Part shown: positions 4,745-20,870 of the stretch, piece by piece
How the letters are laid out: each line of letters opens with the position of its first letter
Position numbering within the stretch: position 1 is the stretch's first letter
Assembly (NCBI GenBank): GCA_949128025.1
Contig: CASBRD010000259.1
Coordinates: 5,175 to 29,174, forward strand
Direction: 5' to 3'
Source of the DNA: Oscillatoriales cyanobacterium PMM_0008
GTDB lineage: Bacteria > Cyanobacteriota > Cyanobacteriia > Cyanobacteriales > Aerosakkonemataceae
Length of the DNA stretch: 24,000 nt
Translations under genes and position numbers: made by a program
The notes under the pieces: model-generated
Databases searched by the model: none
The model's input: the letters and a program-made list of their open reading frames with translations, nothing else
What the model was told of the DNA's origin: nothing

Positions 4745-5089
4745 CTATGAATAAATACTTAGAACAATGGCTAGCGCATCGGTAATTTCTTGCATGGCTG
4801 TATCAGAAAGGGTTCCCAGTTGCTGGATGAGTCTTTGTTGCGAGACTGAGCGCACTTGAAAAGTATCGGCTCCTGAGAGCTTAGTCAAACCGTTCTCTGC
4901 ATTGCGTTCCAGTCGCACCATCCATACTCTCTCTGCAAAATCCTTTTTCCATTCTGTGATGGGGACAATTACCTTTAGTCGCAAAACCCCAACTGTATCT
5001 TTGCTGACGATAACAGCAGGGCGAGTTTTGCTGATTTCGGCTCCAATAGTAGGCTCTAGGTTAACCAGCCAAATCTCTCCTCTACGCAT
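4745..5089 (-). CDS. mazF: MazF/PemK-family type II toxin (mRNA interferase)
   Basis: The protein has the typical PemK pattern: RGEIWLVNLEPTIGAEISKTRPAVIVS...VIVPIT...GLTKLSGADTFQVRSVSQQRL. It overlaps the upstream small ORF by 8 nt (ATGCGTAG). Confidence 0.85.
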   Translation of the reverse strand: MRRGEIWLVNLEPTIGAEISKTRPAVIVSKDTVGVLRLKVIVPITEWKKDFAERVWMVRLERNAENGLTKLSGADTFQVRSVSQQRLIQQLGTLSDTAMQEITDALAIVLSIYS

Positions 5090-5348
5090 ATGAATCTATT
5101 TTGGCAAAATGTTCATCTGTACTTTCGCAAAAATCTTCGCCATCGAGAGCAGTGAAAGCAGTTAACTCCTCATCTTGTAAGTAATCTAGTATTGCAAGTT
5201 GAGCTGTCATCGCGAGTTGTTGCTCTTTCTCTTCTGGGGTGAGTGATTTCCATTCTTCCCGCGCCAGACATAAGGCTAGTTTGGCAATGGTTAAACGATC
5301 TGCGTTGCTTTGGTGCTTGAGTGCTTTCAAGATTTCTGCCTTTGTCAT
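5082..5348 (-). CDS. putative cognate antitoxin (88 aa, helical, acidic C-terminus; not an obvious AbrB-type MazE)
   Basis: It lies immediately upstream of mazF and overlaps it by 8 nt. It is small with an acidic tail (DGEDFCESTDEHF). The call rests on gene context only. Confidence 0.6.
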   Translation of the reverse strand: MTKAEILKALKHQSNADRLTIAKLALCLAREEWKSLTPEEKEQQLAMTAQLAILDYLQDEELTAFTALDGEDFCESTDEHFAKIDSYA

Positions 5349-5568: not shown

Positions 5569-5967
5569 TTAGATTTTTGGCAACATTGCCCGGATCTGAT
5601 TCAAAAACTCTTGATGATCGACCACTGGCTTGGGGATGTAGCCATCCGCACCGCTTTGTTCGAGCAAGTTTTCGCGATCGCCCTCGTTCGCGTGCGCTGT
5701 AACTAAAATCACAGGTAGTTTAGCGGTTGCCGGGTTAGCTTTCAGCATTTGAGTAATCTGAAGACCGTTCATTCGCTTTCCCTGGTAATAACTGTTACCC
5801 AGAGAAACATCCATCAGAATGATCTGCGCTTCCCCAGATTGGGCAATTTGGATTACTTCTTCCACATCTTCCGTGTGGCGTACCCCTAAGCCGCCTCCCT
5901 TAGTCAAAATCTTAGAGAAAACTTTAACGTTTATAGCCTCATCTTCAACAATCAGAACGGTTGTCAT
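5569..5967 (-). CDS. single-domain response regulator (CheY-like receiver)
   Basis: The receiver hallmarks are present: VLIVEDE at the N-terminus, the phospho-acceptor context IILMDVSL, VILVTAH, and a conserved Lys in YIPKP. At 132 aa there is no output domain. Confidence 0.88.
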   Translation of the reverse strand: MTTVLIVEDEAINVKVFSKILTKGGGLGVRHTEDVEEVIQIAQSGEAQIILMDVSLGNSYYQGKRMNGLQITQMLKANPATAKLPVILVTAHANEGDRENLLEQSGADGYIPKPVVDHQEFLNQIRAMLPKI

Positions 5968-6122
5968 AAGAAAGTCCTAGATACAATTGAATTCAAACGC
6001 AGACAATTCCAGCATTACAGCCCGATGTTAGCCTCATGCTTGAGTAATGTTTGTGCAATGTTAGGCTTGGCTGACTTAGCAAACAAATTTAACAAAACTT
6101 CAAAAAAGGTTATGGTTGAGCT

Positions 6123-8477
6123 ATGGCAAAGCGATCGCTCCAAGTATCTCCAGAAGGTATAAAAGAGGCAAAAAAAGCCTTCACTCGCGCCGGATTGATC
6201 CAAACACAGCTTGGCGATCGAGTAGGTTGCACTCGCCAGACAATTGCCAAGTTTTTACATGGCAAATCGGTAGATAGCTACATTTTTAGAGAAATCTGCT
6301 TTCAGCTTGAGTTGGACTGGGAAAACATAGCTGCACCTGAGCCTGCTGAAAATAATCTTAGCCCTAGCACCGATATTGACGCCCTCGTGCAACACATCCG
6401 AGAGAAGCTACGCCCCACCATCCAACAGAGGTGTAGCACAATACGAGTGCTAGATATGACTCAACCCATCGGTTTAACCGACATCTACACCAATGTCAAC
6501 ATTCTAGAGCAAATTACTGGGCGCAGGCCGCTGACAATTGCTGAGCTGATGCAAGTATTCGATCCAGATTCGGGAAATTTCGATCGCTTTGGACTGAGCA
6601 GAATTACCAGAAAACGAGTACCAGGGCTAGAAGCTGTAAAATTTTACCCTAAGCTGATGGTATTGGGCAAGCCCGGATCGGGTAAGACAACATTTTTAAA
6701 GTATTTAGCAATTCAGTGCTGTTATGGTGATTTTCTCAACCATTTAGTGCCAATTTTTATCACGCTCAGAGACTTCGCAGAGGCAAAAAATCATAGCGTT
6801 AACATCGAATTAATTGACCAGATGTTGTTGAATTCTGGCATTACAGATATTCAACTAACTGAGTTGCTCAAACACGGCAAAACATTAATATTACTTGATG
6901 GTTTGGATGAAGTCAGAGAAGAAGATGCCAGTCGAGTTATCAAGCAGATTCAGGAATTTTCCGATCGTTACCAAAGCAATCGATTTGTTATCACCTGCCG
7001 CATAGCAGCGCAGGAATATACTTTTGAAAAATTCACCGAGGTAGAAGTTGCCGATTTTAATCACTACCAAATTAAGGCATTTGCAACCAAGTGGTTTCAG
7101 GTCAAAGAAAATCGATCTTCAATTATTTTACCTGCTGAGGAAGAGATTCAGGCTAATACAGCCGATCGATTCATGCAGCAACTGCAATCAAATCCTTCAA
7201 TTAGAGAACTGGCGACAAATCCTTTGCTGTTGACCCTGCTGTGTTTAGAATTTGAAGATGCCGGTGATTTCCCAGCCGATCGCGCCGAATTATACAAACG
7301 AGGCATTACTACTCTACTGAGAAAATGGGATGCCAAACGCGGTATTGAGCGCGATCGAGTTTATAAAAAGCTGTCGGTACAGCGCAAGGAAGATTTACTC
7401 AGTCAAATTGCCTTAACTACTTTTGAGCGCAAAGATTACTTTTTTAAACAACAGGCTGCTGAATCTTATATTGGAAATTTTATTCGCAATTTATCCGATG
7501 CCAAAACTGACTCGGAAATTCTGCACTTAGATAGCTCGGCGTTGTTGAAATCGCTTGAAGCACAGCATGGAATCTTAATAGAAAGAGCGAGGGGTATTTA
7601 TTCTTTTTCTCATCTAACATTTCACGAGTATTTTACAGCCAGGAAAATTGTCAACAGTTCCGAACCGCAAGCGTTAGAAAAAGCTTTACAAAATTTGGTC
7701 AGCCATATTACGGATAAATACTGGCGAGAAGTATTTTTATTAGCAGTAGGGATGTTGCAGCCTGCTGATTATCTGTTGCAATTAATGAAAAAGCAGGTTG
7801 ATGTGCTTGTAGCTAGTGATGAAAGTTTGCAACAATTTTTGATGTGGGTAAGAGATAAATCGCTTTCTGTCAAGGTTCCTTATAAGCCTGCTGCTGTGAG
7901 GGCTTTTTACTTTAATCTTGCCTACGATCGCCACCCTCAGCGCGATTCAGTTGGTTACCGCGATCCAGAATTGATCCGCACCCTCGATCGTCGCCTTTTT
8001 ACTCTAGTTATTTTAGGCAATATCCGCGCCCTTGATGTCGGTCTTGATGATATCCTTGCTCTGGTTTGCGATCGCACTTTTAAGCTCGATCTGAATAATT
8101 ATCCCTATGCTTCCACTTATGCTTTTAAAGGGGCTTTTTTCCTGGCGTGCGATCGCGCCCTTTACCTCGAACCTAAGTTAGGACAAGCTTTGCAAGAACT
8201 CAAAAACCAACTTCCCGATCCCGATGCTGATAAGTGGAAATTTAAACAATGGTGGGAAGCTAATAGTCAAGCTTGGATAGAGCAATTAATATCAGCAATA
8301 ATTAAGTATCGCAATATAGGTCACAATTGGCAGTTCAGCAAACAGCAAAAAAAGTTGCTTCAAGCTTATTACAATGCCAATAAGTTACTGGTGGAGTGCC
8401 TGAATACCGATTGTTACGTGAGCCGTGAAGTGCGGCAGGAAATAGAGGATACGTTGTTATTACCATCAGAGAAGTAA
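6123..8477 (+). CDS. HTH (XRE-like) - NACHT STAND NTPase with a long helical C-terminal region
   Basis: The N-terminus has an HTH-like segment (TQLGDRVGCTRQTIAKFLHGK). Walker A is GKPGSGKTT (aa 182-190, nt ~6666-6692) and Walker B is LILLDGLDEV (aa ~255-264), with ITCR shortly after. The ~400-aa C-terminal region ends ...NKLLVECLNTDCYVSREVRQEIEDTLLLP, a tail I recall from cyanobacterial NACHT proteins. Confidence 0.85.
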   Translation: MAKRSLQVSPEGIKEAKKAFTRAGLIQTQLGDRVGCTRQTIAKFLHGKSVDSYIFREICFQLELDWENIAAPEPAENNLSPSTDIDALVQHIREKLRPTIQQRCSTIRVLDMTQPIGLTDIYTNVNILEQITGRRPLTIAELMQVFDPDSGNFDRFGLSRITRKRVPGLEAVKFYPKLMVLGKPGSGKTTFLKYLAIQCCYGDFLNHLVPIFITLRDFAEAKNHSVNIELIDQMLLNSGITDIQLTELLKHGKTLILLDGLDEVREEDASRVIKQIQEFSDRYQSNRFVITCRIAAQEYTFEKFTEVEVADFNHYQIKAFATKWFQVKENRSSIILPAEEEIQANTADRFMQQLQSNPSIRELATNPLLLTLLCLEFEDAGDFPADRAELYKRGITTLLRKWDAKRGIERDRVYKKLSVQRKEDLLSQIALTTFERKDYFFKQQAAESYIGNFIRNLSDAKTDSEILHLDSSALLKSLEAQHGILIERARGIYSFSHLTFHEYFTARKIVNSSEPQALEKALQNLVSHITDKYWREVFLLAVGMLQPADYLLQLMKKQVDVLVASDESLQQFLMWVRDKSLSVKVPYKPAAVRAFYFNLAYDRHPQRDSVGYRDPELIRTLDRRLFTLVILGNIRALDVGLDDILALVCDRTFKLDLNNYPYASTYAFKGAFFLACDRALYLEPKLGQALQELKNQLPDPDADKWKFKQWWEANSQAWIEQLISAIIKYRNIGHNWQFSKQQKKLLQAYYNANKLLVECLNTDCYVSREVRQEIEDTLLLPSEK

Positions 8478-8492
8478 CGGCTCTTTCGGAGT

Positions 8493-8574
8493 TGTTATGC
8501 TTTTGTTCATATAAGAACATTTTTATTTCTTTTCTCCTGGAGCCCCTCTGCCATAGCATAGTAAGCACGGAAGA
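8493..8574 (+). repeat. dispersed intergenic repeat, copy 1
   Basis: Block TTGTTATGCTTTTGTTCA is identical in both copies (18 nt), and ..AACATTTTTAT follows. A pyrimidine-rich variable spacer comes next, then AGCATAGTAAGCA(C/A)GGAAGA, which matches 23898-23988 at 19/20. A TATGCT/AGCATA complement brackets the element. Confidence 0.7.
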
Positions 8575-11429: not shown

Positions 11430-12812
11430 CTATTGACTTTCTGGTAACCACACGATAAAAGTAGCCCCCACGCCAGCATTAGTAGGGTGCTGAGATGGAC
11501 TGAAAACCTCAATTTCACCCTGCATTTGCCGCACCAAATCTCGTGCGATCGCCAAACCCAAACCAGTACCAGGAATCTCCGATTGGGCCTGAACTCCCCG
11601 GTAATGCCGCTCAAACAGCCGCTCTAAATCTTGGGGAGGAATGCCAGGGCCAGTGTCACTCACCGCAACTCCCTGCAACCGACCTTGAGGCGATTCTCGC
11701 TCTACCCCTGCCTCAACGTAAACCCATCCTCCCGAAGGCGTATATTTCAAAGCATTATCGATTAAATTGCTGAACACTTCTCTTAAAGCCTTGGCATTAG
11801 CTCGAACAGGCGTCAAATTAGCCCTAATTTCAGCTTTTAACTTTATATTTCGCTCTTGGGCGATCGCATACGCCGATGACAGCAGCGGTTCTAAAACTTC
11901 GGCTACAGAGCAGGATTGCAGAGTCTCGACCGCCATCAACCCACCTTCGGGTAACAACAGTAGCGGTTTATTGGCCCGATCGGGCTCAGTCGCAGTCTCA
12001 ACCTTCCCTTCAACCGACACCTGAGAAGGATAAGCTAACAGCGATCCCCCTTGGCTGGCGGTCAAGTCAATCGCCTCATCAAACTGTGAGAGCAAATCTT
12101 GGATGCGATCGCTCTCCCTGAGAATATTACCTGCAATATCGCGGTTTGCATCGGACGGTCGCAGTCGCCTCAGCAGCAGCTTCCCAAAAGTCAGTAAAGC
12201 CGTCAGCGGATTGCGAAGCTGGTGCAACAAATTATGTAGAAGGTCATTTTGCTGACTCTGGAGACGCTGTTGTTGGCTAAATTGCTGCCCCAGCCATTGG
12301 GAGCGTTGGTCTAAAATACAAGCTAGAGCCATCGTATGGGCAATCCTTTCCACCTCAATCCGTTCCTGCTCATTCCAAGGTCGATCCTCACGACTGGTAA
12401 CCAACAATCCCATCACAACCCCCTCGTGGATCAGAGGTAAAACAATTTGGCGCTGTTGCACCAGAGAATGGCCTTCCCTGTGACGCCGTTGCTCCCCTCC
12501 CGTTGCATCTACCGGGGCCCCAGACCGCAGCAGGATTGAGGAGCCTTGAGGAGCCGCTGATAATAAGCGGGGGATATTATTGACCTTCTCGATCCCATGC
12601 GGTAAAAAAGCCAGCGAGTCATTCTCATCCCAAACCGCAGTTTGGTTAGGGTAAGCCACAACCGGAATCAGTTTAGCTTCTTCTGGCTCCACCAATTCTT
12701 CCGTCAAATAGACTACGCTCAAAGCCGCTCCCAGTGCCTGGGTAAGCAATGCGACCTGTGCTTGACACAGAGCAACAAATTCTGAACTGGCAGGCATCAA
12801 CATTCTTGTCAA
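11430..12812 (-). CDS. GAF-domain sensor histidine kinase (possibly the Hik2/CSK-type kinase)
   Basis: The N-terminal region is GAF-like. The H-box is LHQLRNPLTALLTFGKLL. HATPase_c motifs are present (NLIDNALKYTP, SDTGPGIPP, GTGLGLAIARDLV). The track start at 12812 is TTG; ATG alternatives at 12803 and 12797 are equally plausible. Confidence 0.85.
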   Translation of the reverse strand: MTRMLMPASSEFVALCQAQVALLTQALGAALSVVYLTEELVEPEEAKLIPVVAYPNQTAVWDENDSLAFLPHGIEKVNNIPRLLSAAPQGSSILLRSGAPVDATGGEQRRHREGHSLVQQRQIVLPLIHEGVVMGLLVTSREDRPWNEQERIEVERIAHTMALACILDQRSQWLGQQFSQQQRLQSQQNDLLHNLLHQLRNPLTALLTFGKLLLRRLRPSDANRDIAGNILRESDRIQDLLSQFDEAIDLTASQGGSLLAYPSQVSVEGKVETATEPDRANKPLLLLPEGGLMAVETLQSCSVAEVLEPLLSSAYAIAQERNIKLKAEIRANLTPVRANAKALREVFSNLIDNALKYTPSGGWVYVEAGVERESPQGRLQGVAVSDTGPGIPPQDLERLFERHYRGVQAQSEIPGTGLGLAIARDLVRQMQGEIEVFSPSQHPTNAGVGATFIVWLPESQ

Positions 12813-12940
12813 GCTCTAGTAGTTAACCGTGCCAAATGGCGGTGTTGCCCAAATGGCTTTCTGTTTCTCTGATATCATCTCTCTTCCTCCTAAAGACCCC
12901 CACTATCAGCGCGGCGGATATATCGAGCCTTTGGGCGAGT

Positions 12941-14556
12941 ACCGCCAATGCTTTAGTGGCGGTCGGAAACGGGGGATATTTTATGGGGTTCAATACCCCT
13001 AAAATATCCAAATCACTGTGCATAACTATATCCATCCTTTTTGTGAATGTGTTTGCAGTATTTGTGGCCGATCCCTTGAATCAGTCCGTCCGTTGTTGAG
13101 ATATTGAAACTACCCGTGGCGCGAGTTGCGACCCGTCCAACGTAAGTTCCAATCTTTTTCCCAGAGTTGACAATCGCTTTAACAATGTCACCCGTTTGAA
13201 AACCCTTGTGAAACTTGGCTCTAGAGCAATAACGACTCGGAAAACCCCATTTGTCAGTACGGCACTGCTGACGGGTTCCATGACCCTTGGCAGCAATCAG
13301 CAGGGGCTTAACCCCAGTCGTGATTAACTGTTCTGGGGTGGACGCTCCTACGCAGGCTGCATCCCAATAGTGAGTTTTTTCTAAGCCTCGGATTGTCCGG
13401 TTGTACTTGGTGCGACCGCCTGTGCCAACCTCGACAAGTAAGCCGGTTTTTTTGAGGTTTTCGTACAGATTCCATCGGGTTGCATTGACGGCTGCCGTAT
13501 CTGCCAAGGGTCTTTTAGCTTGAGCCAAAATCCGTTTGAGCAGGTCAGGCTGAAGAGAGAGAAAGTCTTTGATGTCCTGATTGCCCTTCTTCTGATTACA
13601 GGGAACGCAGGCTAAACAAAGGTTACTGACGCGGTTAGACCCCCCAATTGAAGTTGGCTGGATGTGTTCAATCTCAAGCTTGGTGTCTTTTGCACCGCAG
13701 TAAGCACAGGTCCTGTTCCACTTCGAGAGCAGAAATTCTCGTACTTCGTAACCAGCCAGAGTCCCCTGCTGGTAACCTACCCCGCTAATCTCAGAATCCT
13801 CCATCTGTTGCGTGTCAAACCGCACCAATTCTTGAGAAATGGCAGTAATCTGACACAGTGACGACAAGCGCTTGACAATCGTCAGGATGTTAGCCACTCG
13901 ACTATTTAATGATGGTGGCAACCATCCTTGTGGTCGGGTGCGATTGAGAAAACGCGGCTGACGGTAGCGGGTTTTACGGTTGCGTCGTGACCGTCGCAGT
14001 TGTCGGCGAGAGGTTAAGGCGTCCCGAATTTGGAAACCTCGGTGCTGTAACTCGGCTGCCCAAACAATTTCACCTGTGCTGTCGTTGACCAAGGCTAATC
14101 CAGTTGTTTTTGCACCAGGGTCAATCTTGATGCGGAGCGGCTCTAATGAAGGATTCAACACCTCCTCTTTCAAAACAATAGTGAAAGGATAGCGACGAAA
14201 AACAGCAGCTTTCCCTTGAGTTAAAAGCATCCTAGCTCTACCCGGATGAACGGGGTTAAGGGGCTGTTTGTTGGGATCTAGAACAAACACTTTGGACATT
14301 ACTGTCCCTCCTTGCGGGTAATGTTAGCCTGGACAATGATTTAAGGGCTTTTTACGCTAACAGCACTGACTCAAACCCGATGATTCTGCTTAACTGTTAG
14401 CCTCAGAGCTACAGACTGGCTTCGTATCCGTAGGTGAGATGACCTAAAAATCGTAGTACCGAAGTACTTAGTCGGGTAAACTCTGGGCGATTATCGCCCC
14501 CGCCATAGCTGTAATCAGCTTGGCGGCGGGTAATTTACCTACAAGCGTTATCTGAC
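12941..14556 (-). mobile_element. IS200/IS605-superfamily-derived IscB element (non-autonomous; no tnpA); boundaries approximate
   Basis: The element contains iscB and its upstream omegaRNA region. The left boundary is inferred from where homology with the second omegaRNA copy stops (~14540-14556). The right side is inferred from two hairpins (12941-12963, 12974-13009) directly after the iscB stop. No Y1 transposase ORF is present. Confidence 0.5.
13013..14299 (-). CDS. iscB: IscB: OMEGA RNA-guided endonuclease (PLMP-RuvC-bridge helix-HNH-RuvC), Cas9 ancestor family
   Basis: The 428-aa protein has these parts: (1) a PLMP-type N-terminus MSKVFVLDPNKQPLNPVHPGRARMLL; (2) RuvC-I IKIDPGAKTTGLAL (D60); (3) an Arg-rich helix RRQLRRSRRNRKTRYRQPRFLNRTR; (4) RuvC-II ISQELVRFD (E157); (5) HNH CAYCG...LEIEHIQP...NLCLACVPCNQKKGN (C198/C201/H212/C231/C234/N235); (6) RuvC-III KTHYWDAACV (H310, D313); (7) a ~100-aa C-terminal domain. 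Confidence 0.85.
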   Translation of the reverse strand: MSKVFVLDPNKQPLNPVHPGRARMLLTQGKAAVFRRYPFTIVLKEEVLNPSLEPLRIKIDPGAKTTGLALVNDSTGEIVWAAELQHRGFQIRDALTSRRQLRRSRRNRKTRYRQPRFLNRTRPQGWLPPSLNSRVANILTIVKRLSSLCQITAISQELVRFDTQQMEDSEISGVGYQQGTLAGYEVREFLLSKWNRTCAYCGAKDTKLEIEHIQPTSIGGSNRVSNLCLACVPCNQKKGNQDIKDFLSLQPDLLKRILAQAKRPLADTAAVNATRWNLYENLKKTGLLVEVGTGGRTKYNRTIRGLEKTHYWDAACVGASTPEQLITTGVKPLLIAAKGHGTRQQCRTDKWGFPSRYCSRAKFHKGFQTGDIVKAIVNSGKKIGTYVGRVATRATGSFNISTTDGLIQGIGHKYCKHIHKKDGYSYAQ

Positions 14557-14570
14557 CAGTTGGGGGCGAT
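14300..14570 (-). ncRNA. IscB-associated omegaRNA (scaffold ~14300-14553 plus 5' guide region; 5' end uncertain)
   Basis: This is a non-coding leader directly 5' of iscB on the same strand. It has a UUCG-capped hairpin (14456-14467), a GGGCG/CGCCC hairpin (14485-14499), and a long-range complement GGUAAA (14534-14539) with UUUACC (14475-14480). A 30-nt core (14405-14434) matches 17197-17226 at 28/30. The fold elements are conserved by compensatory change in the second copy. Confidence 0.7.
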
Positions 14571-14784
14571 GAATTAGAGACAACATATATTTTTATTACA
14601 GCTACTTCGATCGATATCTGTTTCCAGCTTAGCGCGATCGGTATCTGGGCTTTGCTTTCAGGGCATCTGAAAGATTTGTATCAATCATTTAATAAAAGTT
14701 GATTTTTAGAACTCAAGCCGATATACTTGCGACGGCTTTGGTAAATATCATTACAAAATAGTACTAAAAGAGGAGGTAACTAGC

Positions 14785-15102
14785 TTGGCTAGGAGACGTA
14801 AGCGCAAAAGTCGCCGTCGCCAAGAAGGGCGTAGGATTCTTGAGCACGTGCCTCAATATAGCATCGAAAGTGGGCTGGATAAACCAGTAACGGCGGCTCG
14901 AAAATTTATTCAAGCCGAAGGAATTGTGCCACCCGCTCTACTGCTGGTTAAGCGGAACGAGCATACTACAGATCGGTACTTCTGGGCAGAAAAGGGGCTG
15001 TTTGGGGCTCAGTACGTGGAAGAAAACCATTTTCTGTTTCCCAGCTTGAGAGAGTTAGAACACCCTAACGAAAAAGTTGCAGTTGCTGCTCAAAGTGGCT
15101 GA
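14785..15102 (+). CDS. conserved small cyanobacterial protein with highly basic N-terminus (possibly DUF3155-type)
   Basis: It has a TTG start with a perfect AGGAGG 8 nt upstream. The N-terminus is (M)ARRRKRKSRRRQEGRR. A strong terminator follows. The family name is from memory only. Confidence 0.6.
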   Translation: MARRRKRKSRRRQEGRRILEHVPQYSIESGLDKPVTAARKFIQAEGIVPPALLLVKRNEHTTDRYFWAEKGLFGAQYVEENHFLFPSLRELEHPNEKVAVAAQSG

Positions 15103-15198
15103 GACTTAACGGGTACGATTGGCTCCTAAGCGATTGAAATTCCCATTTTAGCGGCTCGAACACGACCTTTGCAGGGACGACTGAGTTGATTTACATTC

Positions 15199-15242
15199 AA
15201 TAAACCCCACTCAAAACTTGTTTGGTTTGAGTGGGGTTTATT
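15199..15242. terminator. bidirectional rho-independent terminator between convergent genes
   Basis: A perfect 17-bp stem (AATAAACCCCACTCAAA / TTTGAGTGGGGTTTATT) with a 10-nt loop is flanked by A/T runs on both sides. Confidence 0.85.
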
Positions 15243-15303
15243 ATCGCTTTTTATCTAAGAGCTATTTTCCCATGTCCTTGGGACAGGCTTTGCCAAAGGA
15301 AAC

Positions 15304-19544: not shown

Positions 19545-20870
19545 ATGTCAGTTTTGGCGGCGATCGCAGTCTTGGCGGTTTTGATTTTGGTACACGAAGC
19601 AGGCCATTTTATGGCCGCTCGTCTTCAGGGCATTCACGCCAATCGTTTCTCCCTTGGTTTTGGCCCGATCCTGTGGAAATATCAGGGATCGGAAACCGAA
19701 TACGCTATCCGGGCTTTTCCCTTGGGTGGATTTGTCGGCTTTCCCGATGATGACCCCGAAAGCGTTTATCCCCCCGACGATCCCAACTTGCTAGGCAATC
19801 GCCCCATTCTAGACCGGGCGATCGTAATTAGCGCTGGCGTGATCGCCAATCTGATCTTTGCCTACCTAGTGCTGGTGATGCAGCTTGGTGTAGTAGGAAT
19901 ACCGGAAGCGAAGCAGCCAGGGATTTTGGTTCCCCAGATTGTCGCACAAGTAAGTCAAGTAAGCGAGACGGCAGCTAAAGCAGGCATTAAACCGGGCGAC
20001 TTAATTTGGGTTGACGGTCAAAAGCTTAAATTCTCAATTAACGAGAAAAACTCCCAGAGTGAATTACTCGCAACTACTTCGGGCAAGCCAACTAAGCTCA
20101 TTGTGACTCGCAATAACGAGCAAGTTAAGTTGTCCGTGACGCCTCAACCGGGCGGCTACATGGGTATCCAGCTTTCTCCCAGTGTGGCAGCAGCAGCAGG
20201 GATAAAACCTGGGGACGTAATTTTGGCAGCTAACGGCCAAAATTTTGGTCGTTCCCTTAAAGAAGAAGCCGTTTTAAGAGAACTAATTAGAAGTAGTTCC
20301 GGCAAGTCAATTCAATTTACTATTCAGCGTGGCGAAGAGAAACTATCCCTGAGTGCATCTCCTCAGCCCGGTCCAGCTGGTGAAGCCCGGATCGGGATCT
20401 CCCTTGCACCCAACGGCCCCAAGGGTAACCCAGTAGTGTACCGTCGCCCCCAAAATGTTTTCGAGGTTTTTAGCCTTGCCGCTGAAGACTTCCAGAGGAT
20501 TGTGATTTTGACCGCTCAGGGCTTTTGGCAGCTGATTAGCAACTTTAAAGAAACAGCTTCTCAAGTGGCAGGCCCGGTCAAAATTGTCCAGATTGGTGCC
20601 AGTATTGCCCAATCTGACATCACAAAACTGTTTCAGTTTGCCGCTTTAATTAGCATTAACCTTGCCATCATCAACATCTTGCCCCTACCGGCGCTTGATG
20701 GCGGTCAACTTGCCTTTCTGCTGATTGAAGGCATTCGCGGTAAGCCATTGCCAACCAAAATCCAGGACGGGGTAATGCAGACTGGGTTGATGCTACTCTT
20801 AGGGCTGGGAATTTTTCTGATCGTCAGAGATACCGCAAATTTGGAAGGAGTTCAAAAGTTCTTCCGGTGA
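19545..20870 (+). CDS. rseP: RseP/M50-family site-2 zinc metalloprotease with two PDZ-like segments
   Basis: The HExxH motif is in TM1 (LVHEAGHFMAA) and FPLGGFVGF follows. Two PDZ signatures are present (AAKAGIKPGDLI, AAAAGIKPGDVILAANG). The C-terminus has NLAIINILPLPALDGG. Confidence 0.9.
   Translation: MSVLAAIAVLAVLILVHEAGHFMAARLQGIHANRFSLGFGPILWKYQGSETEYAIRAFPLGGFVGFPDDDPESVYPPDDPNLLGNRPILDRAIVISAGVIANLIFAYLVLVMQLGVVGIPEAKQPGILVPQIVAQVSQVSETAAKAGIKPGDLIWVDGQKLKFSINEKNSQSELLATTSGKPTKLIVTRNNEQVKLSVTPQPGGYMGIQLSPSVAAAAGIKPGDVILAANGQNFGRSLKEEAVLRELIRSSSGKSIQFTIQRGEEKLSLSASPQPGPAGEARIGISLAPNGPKGNPVVYRRPQNVFEVFSLAAEDFQRIVILTAQGFWQLISNFKETASQVAGPVKIVQIGASIAQSDITKLFQFAALISINLAIINILPLPALDGGQLAFLLIEGIRGKPLPTKIQDGVMQTGLMLLLGLGIFLIVRDTANLEGVQKFFR

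Follow-up and report, generated by a model that had tools for sequence, protein, structure and literature searches.

A probable XssQ-family STAND transcription factor encoded next to a divergent receiver gene in an Oscillatoriales cyanobacterium

We analysed a stretch of 24,000 nucleotides (the window) from the genome of Oscillatoriales cyanobacterium PMM_0008 (GenBank assembly GCA_949128025.1, contig CASBRD010000259.1, positions 5,175 to 29,174), and in particular a gene on its plus strand (6123..8477) that codes for a 784-residue protein with a helix-turn-helix (HTH) at the N-terminus, a NACHT module and a C-terminal NCH2 domain. An earlier inspection of the letters of this DNA (the sequence-only reading) had left a choice between a defence sensor and a signal-transducing regulator. 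We think that the gene product is probably a paralogue within the XssQ family of cyanobacterial STAND transcription factors, switched by ATP, coupled to a receiver protein and likely to regulate itself. The regulator side of that choice is thus favoured by homology to XssQ, by phased repeats and by two-component neighbours, whereas the defence islet suggested for the neighbourhood found no support. What is new here is a further member of the XssQ family, which is itself already known. The HTH-bearing NACHT architecture was described by Kibby et al. (10.1101/2022.07.19.500537) and by Maeda et al. (PMC8205485).

Searching plasmids at the protein level led us to pSYSM of Synechocystis sp. PCC 6803, where XssQ (Slr5058), an activator of the genes for the sulfated exopolysaccharide synechan, is matched over the full length. 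The BLASTP alignment to XssQ runs over residues 1-784 with 36% identity (E = 9e-143), taking in the N-terminus and NCH2, and in the first 70 residues the pattern is nearly identical between the two proteins. XssQ belongs to the STAND proteins and carries an HTH at its N-terminus; gel-shift assays showed that it binds to AAGTTNNAC boxes, and it activates several xss genes, with XssS (a kinase) and XssR (a regulator) acting upstream of it (Maeda et al., PMC8205485). XssQ and XssR together are enough for xss control in the heterologous host Synechococcus elongatus (10.64898/2025.12.18.694786); the same preprint reports that strain PCC 7942 of S. elongatus has no XssQ homologues. Because XssQ binds DNA and activates genes, the reading of the 784-residue protein as a transcriptional switch has a direct experimental precedent. 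The xssQ gene adjoins the xss polysaccharide genes plus two response-regulator and kinase genes, and a paper on Anabaena describes four XssQ homologues there, every one beside two-component genes. Three of the properties that define the family, namely full-length homology, an N-terminal HTH and genetic coupling to a two-component system, recur in the window, the last of them as gene linkage that points to such a coupling. For a further one, specific binding to AAGTTNNAC-type boxes with activation of target promoters, the pointers are indirect: phased repeats in the spacer, and related boxes enriched on one strand over the whole family.

The limits of the gene and its parts, all on the plus strand, were drawn from the open reading frame, Pfam, the alignment to XssQ and an AlphaFold model. 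The HTH, of XRE/Cro type, occupies residues 1-72 (6123..6338). After it comes a conserved pre-NACHT region (residues 85-176, 6375..6650), which has column identities of 0.6-0.86 in an alignment of 48 homologues and includes, in the model, a long helix at residues 85-104. The NACHT nucleotide-binding domain (Pfam PF05729) spans residues 179-326 (6657..7100; E = 9e-14, 52 bits against a cut-off of 26.7). Both of the motifs noticed in the sequence-only reading are present and fit the pattern of the NACHT clade (Walker A GxxxxGK[ST], Walker B hhhhD[GAS]hDE): GKPGSGKTT at residues 182-190 (6666-6692) and LILLDGLDEV at residues 255-264 (6885-6914), the latter with the NACHT signature D-G-L-D-E. They are invariant across the homologues at G182, K183, G185, G187, K188, T189, T190, D259, G260, D262 and E263. 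Residues 338-600 (7134..7922), as judged from secondary structure and the predicted local distance difference test (pLDDT), make up the helical and winged-helix portion of this module, together with the helices that come after it, and are highly conserved. The next segment (residues 601-686, 7923..8180) is helical and variable, and is the sole poorly conserved, indel-rich part of the protein (column identity 0.36-0.49, insertions of up to 32 columns). NCH2 (NACHT C-terminal helical domain 2, Pfam PF22727, E = 8e-41) takes up residues 687-781 (8181..8465). A terminator-like hairpin, called by consensus scan only, lies over the stop codon (8474..8498) and suggests that the gene is monocistronic.

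The AlphaFold model has a mean pLDDT of 80.5. Searched with Foldseek, the whole-protein model matched NLRC4 (E = 3e-13), and also NOD2 and NLRP3, over about 500 aligned columns, consistent with an NLR-like fold of nucleotide-binding, helical and winged-helix domains; the template-modelling scores are low (0.3) because the domains are placed differently. At the N-terminus, for which structure prediction had been recommended, the model has a five-helix bundle (residues 10-69, pLDDT about 90), in which residues 36-46 would be the recognition helix. In the single 784-residue sequence the Pfam domain HTH_3 falls below its threshold (19.4 bits against 23), and it is called above threshold in several homologues. 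A profile built from 52 family N-termini and compared with solved structures matched HipB (3e-5), then PbsX-family proteins, C.BclI and the 434 repressor. Taken together, the family profile and the model argue for an HTH of XRE type, and the reading frame with XRE-like HTH and NACHT that had been proposed from the letters is borne out. Its description of the C-terminal region was right in part: the region is all-helical, with no WD40 or TPR match in Pfam, but it is not unrecognisable, since residues 687-781 are NCH2. Prediction of the structure of the C-terminal 280 residues (505-784) likewise gave a folded model (pLDDT 92) but no informative fold match; Foldseek returned nothing at E = 0.001 or better, and VIA-align returned generic four-helix-bundle look-alikes only, with Z of 7.5 or less, which falls under the level that is meaningful for helical proteins.

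Upstream of the NACHT gene, and transcribed divergently from it as had been noticed before, is a gene for a single-domain response-regulator receiver (5569..5967, minus strand; Pfam Response_reg, 1e-19). The spacer between them is 155 bp long (5968-6122) and is 76% identical across ten genomes of two families, unlike the synonymous sites of the flanking genes, which are near saturation. Midway between the two start codons are four direct repeats with an 11-bp phase and the core AATGTTWG (6024..6067, plus strand), seen in the sequence and in the two-family alignment, which we regard as a candidate operator. Exactly one whole 11-bp unit of this array is missing from Floridaenema-type genomes. 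Paralogues of the gene bear phased arrays of their own, different from this one, at 40-100 bp upstream of their start codons.

To describe these promoters statistically we compared 61 family genes from many genera with 334 upstream regions of neighbouring genes, in tests that ignore shared ancestry among loci. Self-similarity at a period of 10-12 bp is higher in the family upstream regions than in the controls (P = 1e-7). The hexamer TGA[CG]TT occurs in 32 of the 61 family regions and 25 of the 334 controls (P = 2e-15), its enrichment is confined to one strand, and its copies have spacing peaks at 11, 22 and 32-33 bp. A relaxed reverse XssQ box, GTNN[AG]A[CG]TT, is present in 21 family regions and 11 controls (P = 1e-11). 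The family boxes (TGA[CG]TT) resemble the published XssQ box. On pSYSM, five target genes are preceded, at a distance of 73-125 bp, by exact XssQ boxes in the coding strand; these are 12 bp apart at xssE and 23 bp apart at xssL, and a further box, in the divergent spacer of xssP and xssQ, is 40 bp upstream of where xssQ begins. Of 58 family loci, 45 have an upstream neighbour in divergent orientation, and boxes are just as frequent at loci that lack a divergent gene. By the rule for XssQ targets, in which the box points to the gene that is activated, the array in the window points to the receiver gene.

Arrays of three units, or of two AATGTT units, occur in only two places in the 5.8-Mb genome of the window: in this spacer and on contig C55, where the array stands before a decayed family gene. 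The C55 array (L177:1500-1760, about 19724-19980; AATGTTAGTTC, three to four units) is near a contig end rich in CCCTAG repeats and is followed by a short open reading frame resembling residues 117-147 of the family pre-NACHT region; the locus looks like a decayed paralogue that kept its operator. The only array of TGASTT type in this genome is before a paralogue on contig C168, and control patterns had zero matches. In five other genomes one of two array matches is directly upstream of a family gene, and the control pattern has one match. Scanned with a position matrix, the window showed no array other than that of the spacer. A phased TGACTT/TGACTT/TGA array in G029 (G029:C1:593532-593556) is distant from the single family gene detected there and may be a genuine remote target or, seeing that the control pattern had a match as well, due to chance. 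Overall, the arrays travel with the family genes, and the simplest reading is that the HTH would bind them and that the genes would be autoregulated.

The receiver keeps the canonical D/D/T/K residues, ILMDV holding the acceptor Asp, LVTAH the Thr and IPKP the Lys. All seven members of the clade to which the window's protein belongs keep this divergent receiver, even where their outer flanks differ. The sequence-only reading called it an orphan, which is not clearly so, in view of a GAF-HisKA-HATPase histidine kinase (11430..12812, minus strand; Pfam, synteny) in the same conserved block. This kinase is syntenic in all relatives examined and in Nostocales loci, and we tentatively take it as the cognate kinase; the shared gene block would link it to the receiver or to the NACHT protein.

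Cyanobacteria have a highly conserved, near-universal receiver in single copy (found in 100 of 301 genomes), and the receiver of the window is a paralogue of it with 70-76% identity. The window's genome holds both copies, the second on contig C109, and in one Nostocales genome the near-universal receiver is located between gyrA and a TPR gene. We considered the receiver as a general NACHT partner and rejected it, because in 27 of 29 other genomes no NACHT gene adjoins the near-universal orthologue, and the repeats are lacking upstream of it. In a Pfam census of 136 neighbours (at least 120 residues each) from 69 family loci, the commonest were two-component proteins, with counts of 19 for Response_reg, 11 for HATPase_c, 6 for PAS, 5 each for HisKA and HATPase_c_2, and 4 for Hpt, against a background of about 133 receiver domains in the 5.8-Mb genome. 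The divergent partner varies over the family: a receiver domain is the commonest, and there are also HATPase_c_2 kinases and small unassigned proteins. Among the partners that recur are an 81-residue protein without a Pfam match, a HATPase_c_2 kinase-like protein and an unassigned 224-residue protein. Most paralogues have no adjacent receiver.

These observations are consistent with the following mode of action. A signal would be read by the helical C-terminal region, would arrive by way of the neighbouring two-component proteins, or would do both, and would cause the NACHT module to open and oligomerise in a nucleotide-dependent manner. Several N-terminal HTHs, displayed by this oligomer, could so bind cooperatively to direct repeats that are one helical turn (11 bp) apart. 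In the window the repeats bound would be the four units at 6024-6067; since the spacer around them is common to the NACHT gene and the divergent receiver gene, the 784-residue protein most likely controls its own promoter, that of the receiver, or both. The receiver could be an output of the NACHT protein or, as XssR is for XssQ, an input to it.

It is possible, if rather doubtful, that this arrangement is an instance of something more general, in which HTH-NACHT-NCH2 genes are cyanobacterial one-gene transcriptional NLR cassettes, each with its own phased operator and each switching on a divergent gene; in the clade of the window the output would be an extra copy of the near-universal receiver. 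A core phosphorelay would in this way be connected to NLR-type sensing, possibly of infection or damage.

Several points weigh against a regulator of the XssQ family. XssQ is on a long branch in another clade of our FastTree phylogeny and is only 36% identical to the window's protein. The AATGTTWG units match the XssQ box loosely only, and the enrichment of boxes over the whole family is subject to the shared ancestry mentioned above. Genome-wide pattern searches and the position matrix found no targets in promoters beyond the gene's own spacer. Pfam found no sulfotransferase, glycosyltransferase or other polysaccharide genes within the 24-kb window; the lack of a polysaccharide cluster, along with the different clade, led us to reject the possibility that the gene is an XssQ orthologue, that is, a regulator of sulfated polysaccharide. 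Some clade members have EAD4 or short Q/N/G-rich N-termini, which are typical of conflict systems. Decay or loss of the gene in several relatives, described below, shows that they can do without it, and such a pattern would fit a defence gene too. Lastly, many bacterial NACHT proteins protect against phage (Kibby et al., 10.1101/2022.07.19.500537).

The protein has more than 6,000 database relatives, nearly all of them cyanobacterial, about 780 residues long and of the same architecture. Of 301 cyanobacterial genomes sampled, 79 have NCH2, with 1-7 copies apiece, and 14 control genomes have none, so the statement that an HTH in the effector position is unusual was overstated. There are five copies in the window's genome, of which four run the full length and share the HTH-like N-terminus, and its relatives have 1-12 family matches per genome, among them tandem clusters and broken copies. 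One cluster (G010 contig C197, L024:1379-13210) contains two NACHT-NCH2 paralogues without an HTH, together with large neighbouring genes, and N-termini in it share short Q/N/G-rich motifs such as NVQVGGNLTTGD that recall NLR-associated amyloid signalling motifs. One family gene, 96-98% like that of Chlorogloea, is on a contig labelled Tatlockia sp. MAG (L119, a Legionellales bin), which is most likely a binning error and not a transfer.

Such multiplicity, with tandem clusters and broken copies, would agree with an anti-phage sensor of the bNACHT type, one that detects a cue from phage or stress through its C-terminal region and uses the HTH as effector or adaptor. The HTH would switch on a protective or suicidal response, or would clamp DNA on oligomerisation, and a nearby MazEF pair would be part of a small defence islet. 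We regard this as unlikely, though of the alternatives it survives best. It draws on the true NACHT module and on the list of Kibby et al. (10.1101/2022.07.19.500537), which has DNA-binding domains as adaptors and HTH and NCH among its architectures; on the EAD4 N-termini of clade members; on the loss or decay of the gene in relatives; and on another paralogue that lies beside what is, judged by eye, a putative RES-Xre toxin-antitoxin pair. The sole family member that has been studied, XssQ, is by contrast an activator of housekeeping type, and we know of no tested antiphage member of the HTH-NCH2 type. Searches with defence models gave little: PADLOC returned only a weak PDC-S60 match, limited to the NACHT region, which could be counted in favour, but none of the Avs models (Avs1-5) matched the protein at E = 0.01 or better, no bNACHT model matched, and the NCBIfam model EruA scored 46 bits against a cut-off of 1000. 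PADLOC and NCBIfam found nothing specific for the protein and its neighbours in the window. The co-localisation of homologues with defence genes, which the sequence-only reading had wanted checked, came out negative, as PADLOC found no recurrent defence family among the 136 neighbours from 69 loci; the sole repeated matches were to SbcC. A defence context of the kind expected for bNACHT proteins thus does not appear to surround this family.

MazEF, the remaining support for an islet, is placed as the sequence-only reading had it (about 0.8 kb away): MazF (4745-5089) and its small partner (5082-5348), identified by Pfam, end 775 bp upstream of the NACHT gene. They are part of a block with the order SbcC, (MazEF), receiver, NACHT gene, two TrbI-like genes flanking a gene for a cyclic-nucleotide-binding (cNMP-binding) protein, kinase, CCB1 and PadR. 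The block from SbcC to PadR is syntenic in three genera and the cassette is syntenic across families, which argues against an anti-phage role. In contrast to this synteny, MazEF is absent in one relative (G010), replaced in another (G001) by a divergent allele in which MazF is 70% and MazE 38% identical with flanks 96% identical, and separated from the receiver in a third (G018) by another NACHT gene. We therefore rejected MazEF as a partner of the NACHT protein, since the cassette varies independently. An IscB element (12813-15303) that stands between the kinase and CCB1 is an insertion specific to the window's genome; in G001 these two genes are about 830 bp apart.

The slot between SbcC and the first TrbI-like gene is a hot spot of turnover (loci L085-L093), where different genomes have an intact gene, an internally deleted gene, 65-residue fragments, or a second paralogue that is 52-59% identical. 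The NACHT gene is reduced to fragments in five relatives in the Aerosakkonemataceae (G007, G324, G003, G005 and G009), in the first of which an internal deletion joins residues 1-72 to 594-781. It is absent from the slot in G013 and G017, where the second paralogue alone remains, and it was not found beside the TrbI-like gene in G008, G012, G014 and G016. The same slot is filled by the second paralogue in Floridaenema-type genomes. In a FastTree phylogeny of 90 family proteins this second paralogue is the orthologue of the SbcC-linked gene of Nostocales, and the 784-residue protein belongs to a separate seven-member clade with support of 100.

Where it is intact, the NACHT gene is under purifying selection like its neighbours. 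The ratio of nonsynonymous to synonymous substitution rates (dN/dS) is 0.12-0.23 in five orthologue pairs, and 0.09-0.27 in flanking genes including SbcC and the kinase. The HTH is the fastest-evolving part (dN/dS of 0.19-0.49 in three well-diverged orthologue comparisons). The variable segment (residues 601-686), which would be the putative sensor of an anti-phage protein, shows no sign of positive selection (dN/dS of 0.14-0.29). The independent variation of MazEF, the lack of a recurrent PADLOC family and substitution ratios like those of the flanks thus leave a defence islet unsupported.

The restriction of arrays to the family's own promoters also agrees with a different role, in which the HTH autoregulates only and the NACHT oligomer is a protein scaffold or switch for the phosphorelay of the receiver, without a wider regulon. 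The strict pairing with a receiver within the seven-member clade fits this, as does the relationship of that receiver to the near-universal one, an extra copy of which could tap an existing pathway. The XssQ regulon, however, spans several promoters, and an adjacent receiver is missing at most paralogues, so that we consider this role improbable too, slightly more so than the anti-phage one. That the gene is left over from an expanded family and is decaying or without function, as its fragmentary orthologues in Floridaenema-type and other genomes and the decayed copy on C55 might suggest, is very improbable given its intact reading frame, its invariant catalytic motifs, its low dN/dS and its conserved promoter region.

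If the preferred reading, an XssQ-family transcription factor, is correct, it has consequences beyond this locus. Bacterial NACHT proteins are widely read as immune sensors, and a large cyanobacterial branch of them would be DNA-binding regulators tied to two-component signalling. In annotation, such genes would be better labelled as XssQ-family regulators than as defence genes by default. If the operator and the coupling to the receiver hold, one spacer with two genes and four boxes would make a compact and testable model, which could address how NLR-type oligomerisation is turned into promoter control and how paralogues are insulated from each other.

Among known systems, the Avs proteins share with the 784-residue protein a STAND NTPase and a tripartite layout, but it lacks their nuclease, SIR2 or protease effectors and their TPR-like sensor; its N-terminus is an HTH, and membership of Avs is not indicated by any model. 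The likeness to bNACHT proteins is closer, comprising a NACHT domain with D[GAS]hDE, an organisation in three parts (N-terminal output, NACHT, C-terminal region) and many paralogues in multicellular cyanobacteria; it differs from them in having neither an enzymatic effector nor a defence-island context. The STAND transcription activators AfsR/SARP-LAL of Streptomyces and MalT of E. coli form oligomers that are switched by nucleotide and bring several DNA-binding domains to direct repeats; for SARPs the phase of these repeats is about 11 bp. The likeness of our protein to these is in the proposed mode of action only. They belong to the NB-ARC/MalT-type STAND clade and not to NACHT, and they have a SARP winged helix or a C-terminal LuxR domain and TPR or SUPR sensors, whereas Pfam found no LuxR, SARP or TPR/SUPR domains in the 784-residue protein.

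The closest comparison is with XssQ. At 36% identity and in another clade, the 784-residue protein is a paralogue of XssQ and hence not an orthologue. Its partner is a divergent 132-residue receiver-only protein, whereas XssR is a convergent REC-GAF protein, and its repeat core is AATGTTWG whereas the XssQ box is AAGTTNNAC. In XssQ (L181:6001-8349) the position of the first Walker B Asp is taken by Asn (LLLLNAFDEV, compared with LILLDGLDEV here), and given this substitution the two proteins may handle nucleotides differently. Yet they have the same length and the same three parts, an XRE-like HTH, NACHT, and a helical region ending in NCH2. In both cases response-regulator and kinase genes are close by, a box or candidate box is found in the divergent spacer upstream of the gene, and there is a phasing of approximately one helical turn, which for XssQ is seen in the boxes at its targets.

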